NCBI GenBank assembly: GCA_963770895.1
Contig: CAVYRF010000002.1
Location: forward strand, 3,776,001-3,840,000
DNA: 64,000 nt
Reading direction: 5' to 3'
Origin: an uncultured Acidobacteriota bacterium
Lineage (GTDB): Bacteria > Acidobacteriota > Thermoanaerobaculia > Multivoradales > UBA5704
Shown here: one piece after another, positions 6,473 to 50,223 of the stretch
Numbering within the stretch: the first letter of the stretch is position 1
How the letters are laid out: every line of letters starts with the position of its first letter
Notes under the pieces: model-generated
Database searches by the model: none
The model's input: only the letters and a program-made list of their open reading frames with translations
What the model was told of the DNA's origin: nothing
Program-made: the position numbers and the translations under genes

Positions 6473-9202
6473 ATGATTCCGACCGCGGGGCGCCATGGCC
6501 GCCGGCTCCGGTCGCTGCTCTGGCGTCCGGGAGTCGAAGATGAGATCGCCGACGAGCTGGCGTTCCATCTTGAGATGCGGGCGCGCGACTATGCCGCGGC
6601 GGGGCATGCACCGGCCGCGGCGGCGGTGCTCGCGCGGCGCCGCTTTGGCGACCTGGAGGGGGTGCGGGCGCTCTGCCGCGCCATCGCCAGCGGCCGCGAG
6701 CGGGCGCGGCGGCGTGACCGCTGGCTGGCCGAAGCGGCGCTGGACCTGCGGCTCGCCGCCCGGCGCCTGAGCGGCTCGCCGGTGCCGACCCTGGCCGCCG
6801 TGCTGGCGCTGGCGGTGGGGCTGGCCGGCGCCGCCGTCGCCTGGCAGGTGGCGGCAGCGGTGTTTCGCCCGCTGCCCTTTGCGGCGCCGGCCGCCCTGGT
6901 GCGGGTGCGCGAGGTGAGCGGCCAGGGGGCCGACTTCGCGGTCTCCGCTGCCGACTTCGCCGTCTGGCAGCGGCGCCATCCGGGGATGCTGGGGGTTGGC
7001 GCCTATGAGGCTGGGATCGCCAACCTCGACGGCGACGCGCCGGCAGGCGTGGCGCCGCTGGCCGTGGCAACCGCCCACGCCAGCGCGTCGCTGCTGCCGC
7101 TGCTGGGCGTGCGGCCGCAGCTGGGGCGCGGCATCGCGGTGACCGAGGCGGCGCCGCACGGCAACCACCGGGTGGCGATCCTGTCGCACTCCCTGTGGGT
7201 CGGCCGCTTCGCCGCCGATCCCAACGTGGTCGGCAGGCTGGTCGGCGTGGACGGCGAGCCGGTCCGCGTGATCGGCGTCCTGCCGGCGGAGGTGCCGGCA
7301 CCGGCCGGCGCGCAGCTGTGGATGCCGCTGCTGCCGCGCCAGCTGCAGGGAGCGCGGGCGCGCCAGCGTTTCAGCCTGGAGCTGCTGGGCCGCCTGGCGC
7401 CCGGCGTGACGGCTCGGCAGGCGGCCCAGGGCCTGGTGACTGCCGCGGCGGTCGCGGCGGTGGCCGGCGGGCCGGCGGCGGGCCGGGGAAGCGGCGTCGC
7501 GGTGCGCGTCGAACCGCTTGCCGGCGCCTGGACCGGATCGCGATGGACGCGCCGGGTGCGGCTGCTGCTGGCTGCCGCCGGGCTGCTGTGGCTGCTGGGC
7601 AGCGCCGGCGCCGCCAACCTGCTGTGGGCGCGGGCGTCGGTGCGCCAACGCGAGATCGACCTGTGCGCCGCGCTCGGCGGCGGGCGCCGCCGCATGGTGC
7701 GGCAGCTGCTTGCCGAAGGCCTGCTGGTGGCGCTGCTCGGCGCCGGCGCCGGCCTGCTGCTGGCGGGCGCAGCCGTACCGGCATTGCGCGCCGCCGGCGG
7801 CGGCTTGGCGGCGGCCGGCGACGCCGGGGGAGACATCGCGCCGCTGCCGCTGCCACAGGGGCTGGGCGCGAGCGGCGTTGCGGCCGTCCTGGCGCTGGCG
7901 CTCCTGAGCGGGCTGATGTGCAGCCTGGGGCCGCTGTCGCAGGCTGTGCGGCCTGGCATTCCGGAGACGGTGCGGCAGAGCGCGCGGCTCACCACGCGCC
8001 GCGAACGGCGGGTGCGGGATGCGGTGGTGGTGATCGAGATGGCGTTGGCGACCACGCTGCTGGCGGCCGCCGGCTTGCTGTGCTTGAGCTACCTGCGGCT
8101 GGACCGCGCCGATCCGGGTTTTGACGTCGACCACCTGCTGACGCTGCGCCTGGCGCTCAACGGCGCCGGCTATCCGCCGCCGCGCCGGCGGCAGCAGCTG
8201 CTGCGGCTCGAAGCGCGCGTGCAGGCCCTGCCCCAGGTGGCGGCAGCCGGCTTCATCAGCACCGCGCCGCTCGCCGCCCAACGCCCCAACGAGCCCTTCA
8301 CCCTCGAGCCGGGCGCCGCCGGGCCGGGTGGCGGTGCCGCGGTGCTGGCGGCGGAGTGGCGCGTGGTGACGGCGGGGCTGCTGCCGGCGCTCGGCCTGCA
8401 CCTGCAGACTGGCCGATGGCTGGGAGCGGCCGACGACGACCGCAAGCCGATGGCGGCGGTTGTGGATGCGACGGTCGCCGAACGGTGGTGGCCCGGCCTG
8501 CAGCCGCTGGGCCAGCGGTTGCGGTGGGGTGCGGCGCGCCGCGACCTGCAGGTCGTCGGGGTGGTCGGCGGGGTGCGCGACCTGGACCTGGAAGCCGCGC
8601 CGCGGCCGGTGGTCTTCCTGCCCTATGGCGCCGTCCCCTGGCGCTCCATGTCGCTGGTGGTGCGGCCGCGGTCCGGCACGTCGGCGGCCGGGCTCGCGTC
8701 GCTGGACGCCGCGGTACGGCGTGAGGTCGCGGCGCTCGACCCGGCGCTGCCGGCATCTGGCGACCAGCTGCTGGAGGCTGCCCGCCGCCAGGCGGTCAGC
8801 GGTCCGCGCCTGGGGCTCTGGCTTGTGGCGTTGTACGCCGGGGCCGCGCTGGCCCTGGCAGCCGGCGGCCTGTACGCGGCGGCGGCGGCGGCGGTGGTGC
8901 GGCGCACTGCCGAGCTGGCGGTGCGGCAGGCGTTGGGCGCCGCGCGCGGCGACGTGCTGCGGCTGGTTCTGGGGCACGGCCTGCGGCTGGCCGGCGCCGG
9001 CCTGGCGCTTGGCATCGCCGGTGCGCTGCTGTTCAATCGCCTGCTGGGCGGCCTGCTGTTCGAGCCGCTGGCGGCTGGCGCCCACCTGGCGATCTACGCC
9101 GGCACGGCGGCGCTCCTGGCCGCTGTGGCAAGCCTGGCCGCCCTGCTGCCCGCGCGCCGCGCCGCAGCCGTCGCGCCGGTTCTCGCCCTGCGCCGCGAGT
9201 AG
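6473..9202 (+). CDS. ADOP-type duplicated ABC permease (MacB/FtsX-like)
   Basis: N-terminal ELAFHLEM..ARRRFG prefix; RQREI..AALG; DPGF; ELAVRQALGA; C-terminal PARRAA..P..ALRRE. Confidence 0.88.
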   Translation: MIPTAGRHGRRLRSLLWRPGVEDEIADELAFHLEMRARDYAAAGHAPAAAAVLARRRFGDLEGVRALCRAIASGRERARRRDRWLAEAALDLRLAARRLSGSPVPTLAAVLALAVGLAGAAVAWQVAAAVFRPLPFAAPAALVRVREVSGQGADFAVSAADFAVWQRRHPGMLGVGAYEAGIANLDGDAPAGVAPLAVATAHASASLLPLLGVRPQLGRGIAVTEAAPHGNHRVAILSHSLWVGRFAADPNVVGRLVGVDGEPVRVIGVLPAEVPAPAGAQLWMPLLPRQLQGARARQRFSLELLGRLAPGVTARQAAQGLVTAAAVAAVAGGPAAGRGSGVAVRVEPLAGAWTGSRWTRRVRLLLAAAGLLWLLGSAGAANLLWARASVRQREIDLCAALGGGRRRMVRQLLAEGLLVALLGAGAGLLLAGAAVPALRAAGGGLAAAGDAGGDIAPLPLPQGLGASGVAAVLALALLSGLMCSLGPLSQAVRPGIPETVRQSARLTTRRERRVRDAVVVIEMALATTLLAAAGLLCLSYLRLDRADPGFDVDHLLTLRLALNGAGYPPPRRRQQLLRLEARVQALPQVAAAGFISTAPLAAQRPNEPFTLEPGAAGPGGGAAVLAAEWRVVTAGLLPALGLHLQTGRWLGAADDDRKPMAAVVDATVAERWWPGLQPLGQRLRWGAARRDLQVVGVVGGVRDLDLEAAPRPVVFLPYGAVPWRSMSLVVRPRSGTSAAGLASLDAAVRREVAALDPALPASGDQLLEAARRQAVSGPRLGLWLVALYAGAALALAAGGLYAAAAAAVVRRTAELAVRQALGAARGDVLRLVLGHGLRLAGAGLALGIAGALLFNRLLGGLLFEPLAAGAHLAIYAGTAALLAAVASLAALLPARRAAAVAPVLALRRE

Positions 9203-10164: not shown

Positions 10165-10926
10165 ATGTCTGCCGCGATGGAGCCTGCTCCGACGCCGTCG
10201 TTGCTTGCCGACGGCCCCCAGGATGGTCCGGCGCTGGTGCTGGCGCACGGCGCCGGCGCGCCGATGGATTCGCCGTTCATGGCCGAGGTCGCGGCGGGGA
10301 TCGCGGCGTGCGGGGTGCGCGTCGTGCGCTTCGAGTTTCCCTACATGGCGGCGCGCCGCGATGGCGTGCGCCGCCCGCCGGATCGCGAAGCGACGCTGCT
10401 GCGCACCTGGGGCGCGGTGATCGCCGCCTTGGGCGGCGGGCCGCGTCTGTGCATCGGCGGCAAGTCGCTCGGCGGCCGCATCGCCAGCATGGTTGCCGAC
10501 CAGGCCCAGGTGCGCGGCCTGGTCTGTCTTGGCTATCCTTTTCGCCCGCCCGGCGCCGATCCGGTGGCGGGCGCGCCGCAGCTGGCGCACCGCATCGCCC
10601 ACCTGCGCGAGCTGCGCACGCCGGCGCTCTTCGTCCAGGGCACCCGCGATCCGTTCGGCGGCCGCGCCGAGGTAGCGGGCTACCCCTTGTCGAGCGCCAT
10701 CCGCATCCATTGGATGGAAGACGGCGATCACTCCTGGAAGCCGCGCCGCGCTTCGGGGCGCAGCGAAGCGGACAACCTGCAGGAAGGAATCGCCGTGGTG
10801 GCGGCGTTCGTGCTGGGCGGCGACGGTCAGGACGCGGCGCCGCGGGGAGTCGGCGGGGATGGCAGGGGTGGCGAGGACGGCAGCGGCGGCGGGAACGGCA
10901 GGGGTGGCAGCGCCGCGCGGCGGTAG
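10165..10926 (+). CDS. Alpha/beta hydrolase (KANL3/Tex30-like)
   Basis: LAHGAGAPMDS, GGKSLGGR nucleophile, GTRDPFG, GDHS. Confidence 0.88.
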   Translation: MSAAMEPAPTPSLLADGPQDGPALVLAHGAGAPMDSPFMAEVAAGIAACGVRVVRFEFPYMAARRDGVRRPPDREATLLRTWGAVIAALGGGPRLCIGGKSLGGRIASMVADQAQVRGLVCLGYPFRPPGADPVAGAPQLAHRIAHLRELRTPALFVQGTRDPFGGRAEVAGYPLSSAIRIHWMEDGDHSWKPRRASGRSEADNLQEGIAVVAAFVLGGDGQDAAPRGVGGDGRGGEDGSGGGNGRGGSAARR

Positions 10927-11873
10927 TCGTGCAGCCGGCCCACGTCGATGCGGACCATGCCGGCAGGGGTGGCCGGTTTGAACATGGTCGCGAAGGAGGC
11001 GCCCCAAACGACTTCGAACGCCTTGTAGGACGAGCGGGTATGGACGGTCTGCGAGAAGGTCTCGTCGAAGCCGGTGAGGATGATGAGGAACTCGGCCTCA
11101 CTTGCCGTCAGCTCTTCTTCCGAAAGCCCGTACAGAGGGCTTTCGGCGTCGATCGGGTGGACGATCGTCCACGACAGGGGAAAGAAGGTGACGCGCGGCC
11201 GTTCGAGCGCCAGCGGCAGGAACGGGCGCACGCCGCGGCCGGGCGGCGAATAGGTGAACAGCACCCGGCACTCGACGTCGATCAGCTGATTGCTGCGCGA
11301 GTTGACGATGCGGAACTCGAAGGCGGCGCCGCCTTGATAGGGTGCGATCAGCGCCTGGCGGCTGAACACGATCTTTGCCGTCGGGCGGGAGAACCGCGCG
11401 AACAGCAGGCCGGTCGCCAAGGCGAAGCCCAGCAATCCGACCAACGATTCCACCGTCACCACCACGTTGGCGGCCAGGCCGTTGGGGCTGATCTGGCCGT
11501 AGCCGATGGTGGCAAAGGTCTGGACGCTGAAGAAGAACGCGCGCAGAAATTCGGTGCCGCCCGCCTCCGCCGGCGAAGCGCCGGCCAGCGCGCCGGGGCC
11601 GCAGGCCAGGTAGGCCCCCGCGAAGCTGGCGTTGAGCACCAGGTAGGCGGTGATCACCAGCCCCAGGAATCGCGGCCACGAGGTGGTCAGCAGGTAGTGG
11701 TACAGGCTGAGCGAGCCGAGCGGCCCCAGCCCCTCGCGGCGCACGTTGAAAGTGCCGTCGCGATTGAGGAACCGCTGGCGGCTTTCGCGCGCCACGACCG
11801 ACCCGAAGCCCAGATCGCGGTCGCGATCGACCTCCCCTCCGGCGGGTTCCACCCGCGTCTCAAGGGTCGCCAT
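10827..11873 (-). CDS. Inward-rectifier potassium channel (KirBac family)
   Basis: FFFSVQTFATIGYG selectivity filter; FARFSRP; HPIDAESPLYG cytoplasmic domain. Confidence 0.93.
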   Translation of the reverse strand: MATLETRVEPAGGEVDRDRDLGFGSVVARESRQRFLNRDGTFNVRREGLGPLGSLSLYHYLLTTSWPRFLGLVITAYLVLNASFAGAYLACGPGALAGASPAEAGGTEFLRAFFFSVQTFATIGYGQISPNGLAANVVVTVESLVGLLGFALATGLLFARFSRPTAKIVFSRQALIAPYQGGAAFEFRIVNSRSNQLIDVECRVLFTYSPPGRGVRPFLPLALERPRVTFFPLSWTIVHPIDAESPLYGLSEEELTASEAEFLIILTGFDETFSQTVHTRSSYKAFEVVWGASFATMFKPATPAGMVRIDVGRLHDYRRAALPPLPFPPPLPSSPPLPSPPTPRGAAS

Positions 11874-13410
11874 GGCCGGCGAGTCTAACGCGTTTCGCGC
11901 CGGTGCTCCGCAGGCTCCCGGCGGCGCCGGCGCCGGCGTGCCCGAGGTGCTGGCGCGGCCGTTGCGCGCCAGTCCCCTGTACCAGCTGGTGCTGCACGAT
12001 CGCCTGCCGGCCGCCGCGCGCGCATGGCTGGCCGGGGCGGCGCGCGATCCCGATCACTACGGCGTGCTGCGGCCGCGCGGCGTGGCGGCGAGCGGCGCCG
12101 GTGGCGGCGGCGGCGCCGATGCCGATGCCGATGCCGGGGCTGGCAGTGGCATGAAGCTGGTGGATCGCGACACCGCCCTGCTCTTTCTCACGCTGGAGAG
12201 GCCGGGGCCGCTGCCTGGCTATGTCCGGTCGCGCCTGGGTGACGGCGGCGCCGCGGCGGTGGCGGCGCGGCTGGTGGCGGATGGCGTGATCGAGATCGAG
12301 CGCGAGGCCGGGGTTTTTGTGTCAGGCGCCGCGGCGATGGCGCTGCTGCGCACGGCGGGCGGCGCCGGTGGCGCCGGGCCGGTAGAGGAGGGGCGCATCG
12401 CCGCCGCTGCTGGCATGGCCGCCATCGCCGAGCTGTCGCGCACCGCGCTGCGCCGCGGCCAGCAGCTGGTGAGCGCCGACGGCGCCGTGGGCGCGGGGCG
12501 GCTGGCGCATTTCCTGTACACCTATCATCGCCTGCCGCTCACGCCGGGATGGCAGCGCCGGCTCGCGACCGCCGATGCGGTGCGGCAGTTCCTGGGGATC
12601 GGTCCTGGGGGAGTGCGGCGCGGCCTGCTCGACCGGCACTGGCAGGAGGTGCCGGCCAGCCCGGCCGGAGCGGCGGATGCGGCCGCGGCTCCGGGATCGC
12701 CAGGACCGCCATGGCTGCGATGGTACCCGCGCCGGGCGGCGGCGGCGGCGGCCGTCGACGCGACGCCGCATGCGTACAAGCTCTATGTCAGCGTTGCGCC
12801 CGACGCCATGCCCGATGTGTTCGGCGCGATCCTGGCCGGCCTGGCGGCGGCGGGTGCGCCCGGTTTCAAGGTGGGCGCCAGCGCCTCCGGGCTATTGCGG
12901 CCGGACAAGGCCGTCGCCTATTTCCCGCGTTTCGACGACCTGGCCGCGGCGGCGCACATCCTGGCCGGGCACCTGGACGGCGCCGCCGTGCACGGGGTCC
13001 CCTTCACCGCCGAGATCGCCGGCGGCGGCGTGCTGTCGTGGGGCGTCGATCCGCCCCCATGGGCCGGCGGCACGGCGCAGTGGGCGGGCCGCGGCAGCTG
13101 GCGTCAGTGGCTCACCCAGCGGCTGGCCGAAGCCATGCTCGCCGCGCTGGGTTGTAACGCCGGCGTCGTTGCCGAGCCGCCTCCGCCGCCGGCGCGGCCG
13201 GACTCGGTGCTCGCGCGGACACCGGTTGTCGAGGTGGCCGCGACGTCGCAGGCCGCGCAGCTGTCGCAGCTGTCGGAGCCGTCGCGGCCGGTTGCGATGG
13301 AAGGCTGGGAATTTGCGGTCGAGCGGCTGCGGCTGGAGGGCATCGACCCCGCCACGTGGGCGCCGGGAGCGCTGCTGTGGCGCCGGCCGGAGGAGGCGCG
13401 GGGCCGGTGA
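11872..13410 (+). CDS. HopA1-like putative phospho-Ser/Thr lyase with RRE-like N-terminus (start uncertain; GTG 11938 is an alternative)
   Basis: KLYVS, FKV, RPDKAVAYF, GVPFT, SWGVDP, GSWRQW in HopA1-like order; GTGA coupling to the kinase-LanC gene. Confidence 0.6.
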   Translation: MAGESNAFRAGAPQAPGGAGAGVPEVLARPLRASPLYQLVLHDRLPAAARAWLAGAARDPDHYGVLRPRGVAASGAGGGGGADADADAGAGSGMKLVDRDTALLFLTLERPGPLPGYVRSRLGDGGAAAVAARLVADGVIEIEREAGVFVSGAAAMALLRTAGGAGGAGPVEEGRIAAAAGMAAIAELSRTALRRGQQLVSADGAVGAGRLAHFLYTYHRLPLTPGWQRRLATADAVRQFLGIGPGGVRRGLLDRHWQEVPASPAGAADAAAAPGSPGPPWLRWYPRRAAAAAAVDATPHAYKLYVSVAPDAMPDVFGAILAGLAAAGAPGFKVGASASGLLRPDKAVAYFPRFDDLAAAAHILAGHLDGAAVHGVPFTAEIAGGGVLSWGVDPPPWAGGTAQWAGRGSWRQWLTQRLAEAMLAALGCNAGVVAEPPPPPARPDSVLARTPVVEVAATSQAAQLSQLSEPSRPVAMEGWEFAVERLRLEGIDPATWAPGALLWRRPEEARGR

Positions 13411-16247
13411 GCGGGATGACGGAGCCGTTGGTGCTGGGCGCCGGCGTCACTCTGGAACCGGTGGCAGAGCTGCCGGAGGCGGTGCGGCGGCAGCTGGACT
13501 GGACGCCGGGCGACCATGCCCTGTCGCGGCCGGGCCTGCGCACCGGCTCGCGGGTCGTGGACGCCGCCGCCGCCGATCTGCTGCGCCAGTTCGCCACTCC
13601 TTCCACCCTTGTCGAAGCCGTGATGCGCCACAGCCAGGCGTGCGGCGGCGACGCCGAGGCCCTGCTGGACGCCGCCTACCCGTTGCTCGCCAGGCTTCTG
13701 CGCGAAGGCTTTCTGGTGCCGGCGGCGGACGGCGGCAGGGGACGCATCGACGCCTCGTGGGCGGCGGCGGAGCGCATCGCCGGATGCACCGTCCAGCGTT
13801 GCGTGCAGGTGCTGGTGGATACCGAGGTCTATCAGGTCCGCACCGACGCCGCGCACGCTTCCGCGTCCGACCCTTGGCAGATCGCGCGGCGCGAGGCGGC
13901 GCTCAAGATCGTGCGCGCGCCAGCCGTGGGCGGCGCCGGCGCCAGCGATGGCTCGTCGCCGCGGGGCTCCGCGGCCAGGTTGCTGCGCGAGGCGATCATC
14001 CTCGATCACCTGGGGCGCGGCGGCGCCGGCGCACCGGTGGCGCCGCTGCTGCTTGCCACCGGTGTCTGGCAGGGCAGGCGGTTTTTGGCGCTGGAGTGGT
14101 GCATGGGGCTGGACGCGCACCTGGTCGCCGCCGAGCTGCGCGAGCGCGGCGCCGGCGGCTTGGCGGAGCTGCTGGCGCTCTGCCGCCGGGTCGCGGCTGC
14201 CTACGCCGCGCTGCACCGGCGGGGGGTGCTGCACGGCGACGTGCACGCGCGCAACGTCCTGGTGGATGCCGGCGGCGAGGTGCGGATCATCGACTTCGGA
14301 TTTTCGACCTGGCAGGGCGTGCCGGCGAGCCTGGCGCAGGCTGGCCGTGGCGGGGTCGCGTTCTATTTCGAGCCCGAGTACGCCGCGGCGACGCTTGCCG
14401 GCCGCGCCGCGCCGCCGGTCACCGCGGCCGGCGAGCAGTACGCGGTTGCAGTGCTGCTGTATTACCTTGCCTCCGGCGCCTTTCCGCAGGATTTCTCGCT
14501 GGAACGCCAGACGCTGCTGCGCCAGATCGCGGGCGATCCACCCCTGCCTTTCACCCTGCGCGGCGCCGCCGCCTGGCCGGCGCTGGAAGCCGTCCTGGGG
14601 CGGGCGCTCGCCCAATCGCCGGCGGATCGCTACCCGTCTCTAGACGCCCTGACCGCTGCGCTGCACGACATCGAATCCGGCGTGGTCGTAAGCGACGAGG
14701 CCGGGCGTGGCGACGGGAGTGGACGTGGCGAGGCTGCCGGTCCCGCGCCGCTGCTCGCGTTGAGCAGCGCCTTGCGTCGCGATCCGGCGGCCGCCCTGCT
14801 GGAGCAGATGGTCGCGGCGACGCAAACCGGCGGCGAGCTGTGGCAGATGGGCAGTGGTGGCAGTGGTGAGGGTGGTGGCAGCGGTGCGGGGGCGCTCGCC
14901 GGGGTGCAGGACGGTGCCGCGGGGATCGCGTACGCGCTCTACCGCATCGCGACGGTGCGTGCCGACCCGGACCTTTTGGCGCAGGCGCATCTTTGGAGCG
15001 TGCGGGCGGCTGGCGCGGCGCGGTCCGGTGCGGCGACGTTTTACGATGCCGACCGCAACCTGACACCGCGCACGATCGGCAGCGCCTCGCTGCTGCACGG
15101 ACCGCCCGGCGTGCACTGCACCGCCGCCCTGATCGCCAACGCGCGCGGCGACCGTGCCGCGGCAAGCCAGGCGCTGGCCGCCTTTGCTGCCGCCGCAAGC
15201 GTTCCCTGCCCCTTTGTCGATCTCGCGCTGGGGCGTGCCGGTCTGTTGTCGGCCTTTGCCCTGCTGCTGGATGCGCTGGAAGCTGGCGGCACGGTGCCCC
15301 AGGACGATGTGGGCGGGCTGGCGGGAGAGGCGGCGGCGGGCGCCAGCTTCCAGCAGCTGCGGGCGATGGGAGACGGCCTGCTGGCCGGGATCTGGCGGGA
15401 CATCGTGCCGCTGCGGCCGATTGAGCAGTGCCGGGAGTGGTCCAACCTCGGCATCGCCCACGGCTGGGCGGGTGCGCTGTACGCGATGCTGCGCTGGTGC
15501 CGCTCGGCCGGCCGCCCCCTTCCCGCCGGGTTGCCCGGCCGCCTTGACCAGCTGGCCGGCTGCGCCGAAAGCTGCGGCAGGGGTATCCGCTGGCGCTGGT
15601 ACAACCTGCCGGCCGGGGAGCCGTGGGCGCCGGGCGCTGCCGCGGCGCTACGCCTGACGCCATCGGTCGATGCCGCCGCACCGGTTTCCGGTCACACGGC
15701 GCCGCCGCTGGCAGTGCCGCACGATGGCGGTGCGGCAGCGGTGGCGCCGGTCACGCCGATGGCGCCGATTGGAGCCATGGCACCCATGACGCACGGCGCT
15801 CAGGCCGCACCGGAGCCTGTCTGGATGGCGGGGTGGTGCAACGGCAGCGCCGGCATGGTGCACCTGTGGACGGCGGCGGCGCGGATGCTGCCCGGAGGCG
15901 GCTACGAACGGCTTGCCGTCGACGCCGCCTGGCATGTCTGGGAAGCTCCCGAACGCTCGTTCAGCCTGTGTTGCGGCCTGGCGGGGCGGGCCTATGCGCT
16001 GCTCGACTTGTACCAGCACGGCTGCGGGGCGGAATGGCTGGAGCGGGCACGCACGCTTGCCGGGCGGGCGGCGGCGGCGGTGGCGGAGGAAGAGGTGGCC
16101 GGGGCCGATTCGTCGTTCGCCTCCAGCGCCGCCAGCCTGTATCGCGGGCCGCTGGGGGTGGCGGTGCTGGCGGCGGACTTGGCGCGGCCGCGGGACGCTG
16201 CGATGCCGCTCTTCGGCGACGAGGGTTGGGCGCAGGCGCTGTGTTAG
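13407..16247 (+). CDS. Ser/Thr kinase-LanC-like cyclase fusion (lanthipeptide synthetase-like)
   Basis: GGAGGAGG RBS; kinase ALKIV, HGDVHARN, IIDFG; LanC motifs GIAHGWAG, WCNGSAG, LCCGLAG, SLYRGPLG. Confidence 0.85.
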   Translation: MSGMTEPLVLGAGVTLEPVAELPEAVRRQLDWTPGDHALSRPGLRTGSRVVDAAAADLLRQFATPSTLVEAVMRHSQACGGDAEALLDAAYPLLARLLREGFLVPAADGGRGRIDASWAAAERIAGCTVQRCVQVLVDTEVYQVRTDAAHASASDPWQIARREAALKIVRAPAVGGAGASDGSSPRGSAARLLREAIILDHLGRGGAGAPVAPLLLATGVWQGRRFLALEWCMGLDAHLVAAELRERGAGGLAELLALCRRVAAAYAALHRRGVLHGDVHARNVLVDAGGEVRIIDFGFSTWQGVPASLAQAGRGGVAFYFEPEYAAATLAGRAAPPVTAAGEQYAVAVLLYYLASGAFPQDFSLERQTLLRQIAGDPPLPFTLRGAAAWPALEAVLGRALAQSPADRYPSLDALTAALHDIESGVVVSDEAGRGDGSGRGEAAGPAPLLALSSALRRDPAAALLEQMVAATQTGGELWQMGSGGSGEGGGSGAGALAGVQDGAAGIAYALYRIATVRADPDLLAQAHLWSVRAAGAARSGAATFYDADRNLTPRTIGSASLLHGPPGVHCTAALIANARGDRAAASQALAAFAAAASVPCPFVDLALGRAGLLSAFALLLDALEAGGTVPQDDVGGLAGEAAAGASFQQLRAMGDGLLAGIWRDIVPLRPIEQCREWSNLGIAHGWAGALYAMLRWCRSAGRPLPAGLPGRLDQLAGCAESCGRGIRWRWYNLPAGEPWAPGAAAALRLTPSVDAAAPVSGHTAPPLAVPHDGGAAAVAPVTPMAPIGAMAPMTHGAQAAPEPVWMAGWCNGSAGMVHLWTAAARMLPGGGYERLAVDAAWHVWEAPERSFSLCCGLAGRAYALLDLYQHGCGAEWLERARTLAGRAAAAVAEEEVAGADSSFASSAASLYRGPLGVAVLAADLARPRDAAMPLFGDEGWAQALC

Positions 16248-16335
16248 CATCGCAGCGTGGTCGAGGGGACGTCCGGGGCTCGCACTCAGCCCGCTGAACC
16301 CTGCCCGCGTTGAATTCTCGTCGAGCTCGTTGACC

Positions 16336-17091
16336 GTGCACCTGCACACCGCGGAAGCCCTGTTGCTGGACGTGCGCGACCTGCACGACCGCGATCGAAT
16401 CGTCACCTTCCTGACCCGCGAGCGGGGCAAGAAAAGCGGCGTGGCCCGCGGCGCCAGGGCGCCGCACAGCCGCTTTGCCGGCCAGCTGCAGCAGCTGGCC
16501 AAGGTGCGCATCACCTGGTTCGAAAAGGACGGGCGCGACCTGGTGCGGATCTCGGCCGTGGAAATGGTGCGGCCGGCGCACCGCCTGCAGGCCGACCTCG
16601 AAGGCATCCTGCTCGGCAGCTACCTCGCCGACCACATGCTGGAGTTCGCACAGGAAGACGAAGGCTCCGATCTGCTGTTCCGGCTGCTCGATGCGACGCT
16701 GGAAGCGCTGATCGCCGGAGCGGACCGCGACGTGGCGGCCCGCTACTTTGAATCGTGGGTGCTGCGCCTGAGCGGGATCTTCCCTCCGCCTGACGCCTGT
16801 CCGCAGTGCGGCAGGAGCTTTGCCGGGTGGGCCGTGCTGCCGCCGCAGGCCGATGCGCTGGTGTGCCGCGACTGCGTGGACCAGGCCCAAACCGGCATGG
16901 TGGTTGGCGCCGCGACGCTCGACTTCCTGTGCCGGATCGAGCGCTCGACGCCGGCCAACGCCGGCAGGCTGGCGCCGGCGGCGGCGACGCTGCGGCAGGT
17001 TGAGGAGCTCTGCGCCCGCGTGCGCCGCGGTTTCCTGCGGCGCGAGCTGCGCAGCTACGAAGTCATCCAGCGCACCCGCGCGGCGCTCTAG
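16336..17091 (+). CDS. recO: DNA repair protein RecO
   Basis: [24 protein letters not shown]; CxxC..CxxC zinc finger; located upstream of glyQ. Confidence 0.9.
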
Positions 17092-50147: not shown

Positions 50148-50223
50148 GGGCCGTTAGCTCAGTTGGTAGAGCAGCGGACTTTTAATCCGCGGGTCCAGAG
50201 TTCGAGTCTCTGACGGCCCACCA
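50148..50223 (+). tRNA. tRNA-Lys (TTT)
   Basis: GGGCCGT/ACGGCCC acceptor stem, D loop AGTTGGTA, anticodon arm GCGGA-CTTTTAA-TCCGC, TTCGA, encoded CCA; 76 nt. Confidence 0.96.

Follow-up and report, generated by a model that had tools for sequence, protein, structure and literature searches.

A candidate two-chain lanthionine synthetase of an uncultured Acidobacteriota bacterium and its putative substrate peptide encoded on another contig

The 64,000-nucleotide (nt) stretch of contig CAVYRF010000002.1 analysed in the present study (hereafter the window; coordinates refer to it unless marked G000, which designates its own genome) carries two plus-strand genes, gene 1 (11872..13410; 512 amino acids (aa); single copy in the genome) and gene 2 (13407..16247; 946 aa), which probably encode a split, two-chain lanthionine synthetase guided by RiPP recognition elements (RREs; RiPP, a peptide made by ribosomes and modified after translation) and acting in trans on a peptide encoded elsewhere. 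The product of gene 1 appears to combine an RRE-like domain with a HopA1/LanY-type phospho-Ser/Thr lyase, and that of gene 2 an RRE with a LanL-like Ser/Thr kinase and a LanC cyclase carrying a CCG motif. At related loci the pair stands beside genes for a family of peptides with Cys...Thr/Ser units, one member of which is encoded on another contig of the same genome. The functions of the enzyme domains are assigned here because of the established knowledge of LanL/LanKC, LanK/LanY and LanC enzymes, the putative substrate because of genomic linkage, and the putative modification sites and ring direction because of the frequency of Ser/Thr four residues after Cys.

Candidate precursor peptide family linked to the gene pair

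Eighty related loci were taken from one-per-species genomes (numbers with L designate loci and those with G genomes). In the AT-rich cyanobacterial locus, a 92-aa open reading frame (ORF) with two SCTxCTCS repeats is located upstream of gene 1, and clustering of the ORFs of all loci resulted in two groups of small same-strand ORFs that are alike in build. A motif search gathered 32 peptides, which were aligned and made into a profile; scans of these 32 peptides against Pfam and NCBIfam revealed no family. The members begin with an MxFxxRDLMxDVLP motif, of which L8 and P14 are invariant in the alignment, carry one to many Cys...Thr/Ser units in the middle (for example, CGQAT, CPEDT, CTPSP, CTGTT, and CPNPS), and end with the helix LALLRxQLRxxL.

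The profile matched 113 reading-frame segments in 67 sources at E ≤ 1, and at E ≤ 0.01 it recovered 106 peptide genes in 62 of the 80 loci, so that the small Ser/Thr/Cys-rich ORFs that the original prediction had proposed to seek at homologous loci were indeed found. All 106 peptide genes have the orientation of gene 1, and the opposite strand, which provides an internal control, was free of them. Of the 76 loci in which the DNA upstream extends for 1 kb or more, 58 have a peptide gene that terminates immediately ahead of gene 1. Many loci encode two to four different precursors per enzyme pair.

The spacing within the units is strongly biased. Ser or Thr stands exactly at +4 for 298 of the 461 Cys residues of 98 peptides (E ≤ 1e-3; these include the 32 used to build the profile), the overall Ser plus Thr content being 12.9% and the next-best offsets being +1 (30%) and +3 (26%). 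The Cys-x3-Ser/Thr motif is present in 87 of the 98 peptides, a count that is somewhat biased by the profile, the consensus of which itself holds Cys and the +4 Thr and favours up to two such units.

Additionally, longer precursors of 150–210 aa with up to 15 Cys residues were observed in several lineages, in L058, L088, L079, L076, L039, L042, L023 and others (at about 7200–8000). These contain many tandem units, such as CTGC/CSNC, FCGTASAG repeated seven times and CTPSPP repeated five times, and have a coiled-coil-like tail (...VEEQE...) past the conserved helix; they are better described as small proteins than as short RiPP precursors of the typical kind.

Candidate substrate peptide in the genome of the window

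The original prediction had pointed to the absence of a precursor between the K+ channel gene and recO and had suggested that substrates might be encoded in trans. Both statements agree with the present results: the ORF list has nothing but genes 1 and 2 in this interval, and the peptide profile had no match at E ≤ 1 in the whole window, while the only credible match in the whole genome was located on another contig, at G000:C1:1678460-1678693 (minus strand; profile positions 1-81 matched at E 7.9e-7), the family being adjacent to the gene pair elsewhere. This peptide of 79 residues, MAFAARDLVLDLSSPKVPPQPNPKPECELTTGVTGGPVAEDWSPAPHCALDSSMATAGDDELAELRRQLRAALEAKAAA, possesses the N-terminal motif, the Cys repeats and the C-terminal helix, with Cys27 followed by Thr31 and Cys48 followed by Ser52. 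A second match in the genome (E 0.26) covered half of the profile inside a 489-aa frame and was discounted.

The peptide gene is located about 60 bp downstream of the gene for a protein of 1313 aa, in which two complete kinase domains are combined with a membrane helix and PD40 repeats. The other neighbours of this locus encode an E1 dehydrogenase, a glutaredoxin-domain protein, ETF, and a SpoIIE/PP2C-type phosphatase, the phosphatase-domain protein (L092:17082-18437, on G000:C1) lying about 3 kb from the tandem kinase.

The closest homologous loci, L010, L011, L013 and L051, with gene 1 products 50 to 52% identical and gene 2 products 57 to 63% identical to those of the window, share parts of the gene order macB-Kir-gene 1-gene 2-recO-glyQ-glyS and also lack an adjacent peptide gene. 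Three of these four syntenic genomes contain one peptide gene elsewhere, in each case just after an orthologue of the PD40 kinase. Because three of the four relatives show the same split, the arrangement is old and maintained and not a recent accident. Two genomes of the same taxonomic family, G065 and G097, had also been considered as close relatives and were set aside, their gene 1 products being only 42 to 47% identical and the loci not syntenic. In the class-wide sample, the peptide was detected in 4 of the 22 genomes with gene 1 and in none of the 179 without it by a whole-genome search that is low in sensitivity, as the 4 of 22 indicate, and that gives no co-occurrence rates.

A predicted complex between the gene 2 RRE and the C1 peptide received weak support, with a score of 0.39 against 0.00 for the best of three controls; the runs agreed in at least 55% of contacts, with a partner predicted local distance difference test value (pLDDT) of at least 49. 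On calibration, 116 of the 157 solved complexes attained the mark of the tool, as did 2 of the 215 mismatched pairs, and scores up to 0.60 comprised 18 of the 157 solved complexes together with both passing mismatches. The score may thus be taken as a small increment only, to which likeness to solved RRE–leader complexes may itself contribute.

Gene 1: fold, candidate catalytic residues and family

The ATG at 11872 is most likely the start of gene 1, because the N-terminus MAGESNAF is kept in its closest database relative (87% identity). The AlphaFold2 (AF2) model of the protein (pLDDT 77.1, predicted template modelling score 0.77) consists of two parts, for which fold searches point to an RRE-like winged helix at 11935..12366 (about residues 22-165) and a lyase domain at 12427..13377 (about residues 186-502). 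In VIA-align comparisons, residues 186-502 aligned best with LxmY, chain B of the lexapeptide dehydratase LxmKY (9dk1; Z 14.0, 227 aligned residues, root mean square deviation (rmsd) 4.1, 21% identity), followed at Z 13.0 by HopA1 (4rsw), the lyase parts of CuvL (Z 12.3), ThurKC (11.5) and SalKC (11.1), and SpvC (2q8y; Z 8.3). Foldseek with the same model found HopA1 at E 1.2e-5, and the atlas feature matches were to HopA1 clusters at 0.92 to 0.95. These comparisons of a predicted model support a HopA1/OspF-type lyase fold for the C-terminal domain. The original prediction that the first gene is HopA1-like therefore holds at the level of fold, on which the assignment rests, and not at that of the HMMER threshold: the Pfam HopA1 model (PF17914) scored only 15.8 bits (E 0.013) against a cut-off of 22.7, and an NCBIfam scan assigned the protein to no family.

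The motifs quoted earlier from gene 1 are all present in its translation, as YKLYVS, FKVG, LLRPDKAVAYF, HGVPFT, VDPP and LSWG. An alignment of homologues (33 to 35 sequences for the two genes) showed K303, K333, R343 and Y350 to be invariant, with a spacing of 30/10/7 that resembles the 32/10/7 of R187, K219, R229 and Y236 in CaoY; the four residues, mapped by spacing only, are thus putative counterparts of the CaoY catalytic residues. The latter are described in the available part of PMC9486802 as aligning to K104, K136, R148 and Y158 of SpvC, and mutagenesis reported there indicates that R187, K219 and R229 of CaoY matter. The signature of such lyases comprises a base Lys with a Tyr, an enolate-stabilising Lys or Arg, and a phosphate-binding Arg (K136, Y158, K104 and R148 in SpvC and K219, Y236, R187 and R229 in CaoY, respectively).

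For the N-terminal domain, residues 25-145 of the whole 512-residue model aligned by VIA-align with the RRE region of MibB (Z 6.8, 79 aligned residues, rmsd 2.5) and with those of TigE (Z 6.3), MadB (5.7), NisB (5.2), TbtB (5.0) and MccB (4.8). The list is consistent, and all values are below 8, at about 5 to 7 only, so the domain may be called RRE-like on weaker support than the corresponding domain of gene 2. Homology between the two N-terminal domains was also considered: an hhalign comparison was colinear, and its probability of 5.6% and E of 0.0069 were too weak to retain this proposal.

A word-indexed search with the gene 1 protein yielded 344 matches, and all those listed are named 'hypothetical protein' and have no precomputed Pfam domain. 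In an exhaustive search, 1555, 1405 and 1045 representatives of clusters at 50% identity were found at E ≤ 1e-3, 1e-10 and 1e-30, respectively. The best 150 representatives are 349–474 aa long, and longer, fused relatives were absent at E ≤ 1e-10, which is weak evidence for the separateness of this lyase.

Gene 2: RRE, kinase and cyclase domains

The description of the second gene as a Hanks-type kinase fused to a LanC cyclase with CCG was confirmed. In Pfam, LANC_like (PF05147) scored 59.1 bits where its cut-off is 23.2, and the score for Pkinase was 43.4 bits (cut-off 31.7), the kinase domain being located at 13824..14696 (about residues 140-430) and the LanC domain at 14904..16208, with PF05147 matches at 14904-15497 and 15831-16208 in one frame. 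The motifs LHGDVHARN, IIDFG, GIAHGWAG, GWCNG and LCCG are found in the translation, as had been quoted. The best NCBIfam model was class IV LanL (NF038150; 114.6 bits, E 4.4e-33, cut-off 650), matched over positions 236-687 of 851 only, which correspond to the kinase–cyclase part, the lyase part being absent. Among 33 full-length homologues, the kinase residues K167, E195, H276, D278, H280 and N283 (HGDVHxRN) and D296 (DFG) are invariant, as are the cyclase residues H685 (AHGWAG), W810-C811-x-G813 (WCNG) and C855-C856-G857 (CCG). Because of this invariance both domains look active, the cyclase with a presumable zinc site of three cysteines.

The RRE domain occupies 13407..13736 (residues 1 to about 110). 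The first 132 residues, folded together with 35 homologues, gave an AF2 model with a pLDDT of 85.5 that consists of strands followed by three helices. In an exhaustive VIA-align comparison, this model matched TbiB1 with bound leader (Z 10.3, 84/84 residues aligned, rmsd 2.6), TigE (Z 10.2), the lasso B1 protein 6jx3 (9.6), PqqD 5sxy (9.6), ThcOx (9.0), MibB (8.5) and MccB (8.4), and the top Foldseek rows were nearly all RiPP RRE proteins at modest E values of 2e-3 to 0.1. A PqqD-like RRE fold is thus clear from the predicted structure of gene 2, while neither protein matched PqqD in a Pfam scan at E ≤ 1. The earlier proposal that both N-termini are PqqD-like RREs is borne out for gene 2 (Z 10.3) and more weakly for gene 1 (Z 4.8 to 6.8).

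The 120 best homologues of gene 2, called either 'LanC family protein' or 'serine/threonine protein kinase', are 765–1000 aa long. An Ala/Pro-rich low-complexity insert (about 15610-15830, residues about 735-805) lies within the LanC domain and separates the two PF05147 matches; the protein has 946 aa here and 935–944 aa in its closest relatives, and most homologues have about 775–860 aa.

Apart from gene 2, the genome is unusually rich in lanthionine-cyclase genes, with 12 further LanC-like matches beyond the two of gene 2 (for example, G000 C2:4307735-4308793, C2:272850-273980, C2:3320488-3322883 and C2:3862037-3863011). The frames concerned include ones of 1100, 1129 and 1035 aa and two adjacent ones, and one of them lies about 22 kb past the end of the window.

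Conservation and genomic context of the gene pair

In 78 of the 80 loci, the kinase part of a gene 2 homologue was found downstream of gene 1, in most of them no more than tens of bases away. The pattern is broken at L036, where the DNA stops 55 bp past gene 1, and at L064, where no kinase match occurs in the 1.2 kb behind a truncated gene 1 match. The loci belong mostly to Thermoanaerobaculia and other Acidobacteriota, and the remainder to Chloroflexota, Nitrospirota, Planctomycetota, Armatimonadota, Eremiobacterota and a cyanobacterium, making at least seven phyla in all. Within the taxonomic class of the window, gene 1 is present in only 22 of the 201 sampled genomes (12 of 81 genera); although its neighbours here are housekeeping genes, the pair is thus accessory.

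The two genes of the window appear to be translationally coupled. The GTGA overlap claimed earlier was verified at 13407-13410, where the stop codon of gene 1 (TGA, 13408-13410) overlaps the start codon of gene 2 (GTG, 13407-13409), and together with the AGGAGG ribosome-binding site at 13391-13396, 10 nt upstream of this GTG, it forms a plus-strand element spanning 13391..13410. Such coupling is not universal, because a 368-aa ORF of unknown function separates gene 1 and gene 2 in an Armatimonadota locus (L068:5385-6491), and the two genes are about 0.75 kb apart in the cyanobacterial locus (L087:6003-6750).

In the window, genes 1 and 2 are the only genes between a Kir-type K+ channel gene (10827-11873, minus strand, longest ORF) and recO, which is followed by glyS, and the G+C content around the pair is about 70 to 77%. 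The Pfam neighbour scan also found a MacB/FtsX permease at 6473-9202. The longest ORF of the channel begins at 11873 and gene 1 at 11872, so the two would be divergent with zero intergenic DNA; the true start of the channel gene probably lies up to about 240 bp further inside the ORF, because the channel Pfam matches begin at residue 91. A promoter scan of 11400-16600 found no sigma-70-like site, and the three terminator-like sites of the same region are all inside gene 2, their count being little above the shuffled expectation. The sole tRNA of the window, and its sole RNA-family match above the gathering threshold, is a tRNA-Lys (anticodon TTT) at 50148-50223.

Recurrent but unrelated neighbours at other loci are WS/DGAT acyltransferase, Na/sulfate symporter, acetyl-CoA synthetase and tryptophan halogenase genes. 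The tryptophan-halogenase gene (PF04820, E 6e-145) is located about 1.6 kb upstream of gene 1 in six loci (L064:4283-5863 and five others), where it possibly encodes a tailoring enzyme or merely reflects inherited synteny.

Tandem Ser/Thr kinases at related loci

Large same-strand kinase genes flank the pair in 41 of the 80 loci, with a typical order of kinase-peptide, kinase-peptide, gene 1, gene 2, kinase-peptide. All nine flanking kinases that were scanned contain Pkinase and PD40 repeats, and seven of the nine have two kinase domains. A peptide gene directly follows 64 of the 69 large flanking kinase genes, so the peptide genes are tied to the tandem kinases at least as tightly as to gene 1. 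G097 and the three relatives that have the split show the same pairing. In the window's genome, the tandem kinase lacks a full-length paralogue, the other kinases being at most 46% identical and over one domain only; compared with cluster kinases from other genomes, its identity is 44 to 57% across about 500 to 1240 residues. Since loci of distant phyla keep the peptide, gene 1 and gene 2 without tandem kinases, the latter were treated as a lineage-specific addition.

That the pair serves as a shared maturase for signalling pairs of a tandem-kinase/PD40 protein and a Cys-x3-Ser/Thr protein, the ringed product being the ligand, substrate or regulator of the cognate kinase, is conceivable although rather doubtful. 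If true, it would represent a partnership of Hanks-type kinases with lanthipeptides, with a logic like that of pheromone–receptor pairs and, in this genome, with its two halves on different contigs.

Discussion

The following route is proposed for the gene pair. The N-terminal motif of the peptide would dock in strand form on the gene 2 RRE, the gene 1 RRE or both, and the conserved C-terminal amphipathic helix could provide a second handle; this helix recalls the helical leader motif of class III/IV precursors. The gene 2 kinase would then phosphorylate the Ser/Thr located four residues past each Cys, here Thr31 and Ser52, and the HopA1/LanY-type lyase of gene 1 would eliminate the phosphate, giving dehydrobutyrine or dehydroalanine. 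Finally, the LanC domain of gene 2, with its presumed three-Cys zinc site (WCNG and CCG), would add Cys(i) to the dehydro residue at i+4, and two small thioether rings, Cys27-Thr31 and Cys48-Ser52, are predicted as the result.

Several observations weigh against this interpretation. Rings in which the Cys is N-terminal to the dehydro residue are uncommon. The sub-threshold PF17914 score and the low RRE-region Z values of gene 1 were given above, and a profile of gene 1 homologues searched against the sequences of the PDB yielded a single chance match (E 0.9). Moreover, 18 of the 80 loci contain no peptide gene within 8 kb, and the prominence of the Cys-x3-Ser/Thr motif is to some extent enhanced by the composition of the profile and by the counting of its own members. 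No conserved protease or exporter was found among the neighbours of the module, which is unusual for a secreted lanthipeptide, and the genome contains 12 other LanC-like loci. The close tie of the peptide genes to tandem kinases belongs here as well: the true kinase or partner of the peptide could differ from gene 2.

This last point leads to an alternative that we regard as unlikely, in which the functional unit is the membrane tandem kinase with its downstream small protein, and the gene pair is a shared maturase and not an antibiotic pathway. The small protein might be phosphorylated by the tandem kinase and its phospho-sites then be converted irreversibly to thioethers by genes 1 and 2; alternatively, the peptide with its rings might be that kinase's cognate ligand or regulator. 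Such a unit would agree with the order of kinase and peptide genes at the 41 loci described above, with the domain composition of the nine scanned kinases, with the position of the peptide directly behind the only tandem-kinase/PD40 protein of its type in this genome, with the identity of that protein to cluster kinases elsewhere, with the repetition of the pairing in the three split relatives and G097, and with the lack of a conserved exporter or protease. At the same time, distant phyla have the peptide and both genes without such kinases, the kinase of gene 2 is itself intact, and the linkage may reflect inheritance within a single lineage. Eukaryotic LanCL proteins have been reported to cap dehydro residues, and it may be asked whether the pair acts on proteins, for instance by eliminating phosphate from the activation loops of Ser/Thr kinases, as OspF/HopAI1 do, with LanC capping the dehydro residue. 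The HopA1/OspF fold of gene 1, the lack of a precursor in the window and the frequency of Ser/Thr kinases among the neighbours would suit this activity, and protein substrates were raised for HopA1–LanC systems without nearby peptides by Eyles et al. (10.1101/2020.12.17.423248, in the text available). We consider it improbable, given the RRE-type domains on both proteins, which serve the recognition of peptide leaders, and the Cys-x3-Ser/Thr peptide family present at 62 of the 80 loci and in one copy in this genome.

The chemistry could also stop short of an intramolecular lanthionine, the product being only phosphorylated or dehydrated, or receiving an external thiol from the cyclase. The ring topology is deduced from spacing, the order of Cys before Ser/Thr is unusual in direction, and in some peptides, such as that of G203, there is only one Cys or the spacing is +5; the covariation of Cys and Ser/Thr at a fixed +4 in 298 of 461 cases and the invariance of the zinc-ligand cysteines and the active-site His nevertheless make this outcome very improbable. 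Least likely of all is that the pair of the window is an orphan remnant without a substrate. The adjacent precursor is absent and the peptide is on another contig, but both frames are intact and keep all family-invariant residues, and the orphan gene order recurs in four other genomes at only 50 to 62% protein identity, which indicates long-term selection; one unlinked peptide is retained in three of these four genomes. On balance, a split synthetase acting in trans on the peptide from another contig remains the preferred interpretation.

If reconstitution confirms it, the pair would represent a further lanthionine synthetase architecture, in which a HopA1/LanY-like lyase chain is combined with a chain of LanL-like kinase and three-Cys LanC, both being RRE-guided. 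A large unannotated precursor family accompanies the pair, and the lyase family comprises more than 1000 clusters at 50% identity in several phyla, mostly of uncultured organisms. From the Cys-x3-Ser/Thr repeats and the conserved ends of the peptides, products with series of small rings are predicted, in which Cys precedes the dehydro residue, together with a mode of recognition that uses two handles. An 'orphan' pair of RiPP enzymes can evidently keep a substrate encoded elsewhere for a long time, and such substrates would be missed by genome mining that is limited to neighbouring genes. The pairing of precursors with tandem kinases, in turn, raises the possibility of a link between lanthipeptide chemistry and Hanks-type signalling.

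Comparison with known systems

The phospho-Ser/Thr lyase, Ser/Thr kinase and Zn-dependent LanC chemistries expected of the pair are the same as those of the class IV enzymes LanL (NF038150; CuvL, 8car/8cav). LanL is a single chain with an N-terminal OspF-like lyase, whereas the lyase is separate here and has HopA1 and LxmY as its closest structures; in addition, an RRE-type domain is present on both chains and the cyclase carries CCG. Gene 2 possesses the active kinase residues of the LanL type and the cyclase zinc cysteines (C811, C855 and C856), yet the pair falls outside class IV, with 114.6 bits against 650 and without the single lyase–kinase–cyclase chain. The first catalytic position of the lyase appears to be Lys in gene 1, as in OspF/LanL, in contrast to Arg in CaoY. 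To our knowledge, RREs are not known from the class III to V lanthipeptide enzymes. The RREs of TbiB1, PqqD, TigE, MibB/NisB and MccB resemble the N-terminal domain of gene 2 (Z 8.4 to 10.3) and less closely that of gene 1 (Z 4.8 to 6.8), and the likeness to these PqqD-like domains is one of predicted fold, with no match to gene 1 or gene 2 at the sequence level.

A stand-alone HopA1-like lyase working with a kinase is also found in the class V LanK/LanY systems (CaoK/CaoY and LxmK/LxmY; 9dk1). These use a free APH-type kinase and have no LanC, as far as the text seen of PMC9486802 goes, whereas the kinase is LanL-like and fused to LanC here, so that the separate lyase of the pair fits the class V set LanK/LanY/LanX and the LanC fusion (59.1 bits) does not. 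In the accessible part of a review (PMC12141560), modelling places the leader on the LxmK C-lobe and no RRE is mentioned. The nearest remark in print appears to be that of Eyles et al. (10.1101/2020.12.17.423248; also PMC8153245), which, in the portion available, reports that HopA1-like lyases co-occur with phosphotransferases and LanC-like cyclases, in some cases without nearby precursors, and so anticipates the general idea of an association of HopA1 with LanC. Their groups come mostly from Proteobacteria, Bacteroidetes and Actinobacteria and include HopA1–LanC or HopA1–phosphotransferase fusions; in the same portion, neither an RRE, a kinase–LanC fusion, a Cys-x3-Ser/Thr precursor family nor a link to tandem kinases is mentioned.

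With respect to the cyclase, the three-Cys zinc site invites comparison with ProcM, a single-chain LanM with a lipid-kinase-like dehydratase that is not known to have a separate lyase or an RRE. The CCG motif (three Cys zinc ligands) is presented, in the part seen of PMC8524650, as a mark of ProcM-like enzymes that is tied to promiscuity, a property with which the several precursors per enzyme pair at many of the present loci may be compared. The designation 'Class VI' is already used for the streptococcal LanKCb enzymes, according to the available text of PMC12328550, and the lanthipeptides of Acidobacteriota described in PMC13083261, in so far as its accessible text covers them, belong to ordinary class II and III clusters and thus to a different system. 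A literature search, covering few subscription journals and no preprint supplements, found no description of a family joining an RRE-lyase with an RRE-kinase-LanC protein, and the original prediction of a hybrid architecture outside the described classes agrees with this result as well as with the LanL score and the absence of LanC from class V. By analogy with classes III to V, the pair would nevertheless be expected to work in the familiar order: phosphorylation by the kinase, elimination by the lyase, and then addition of the thiol.

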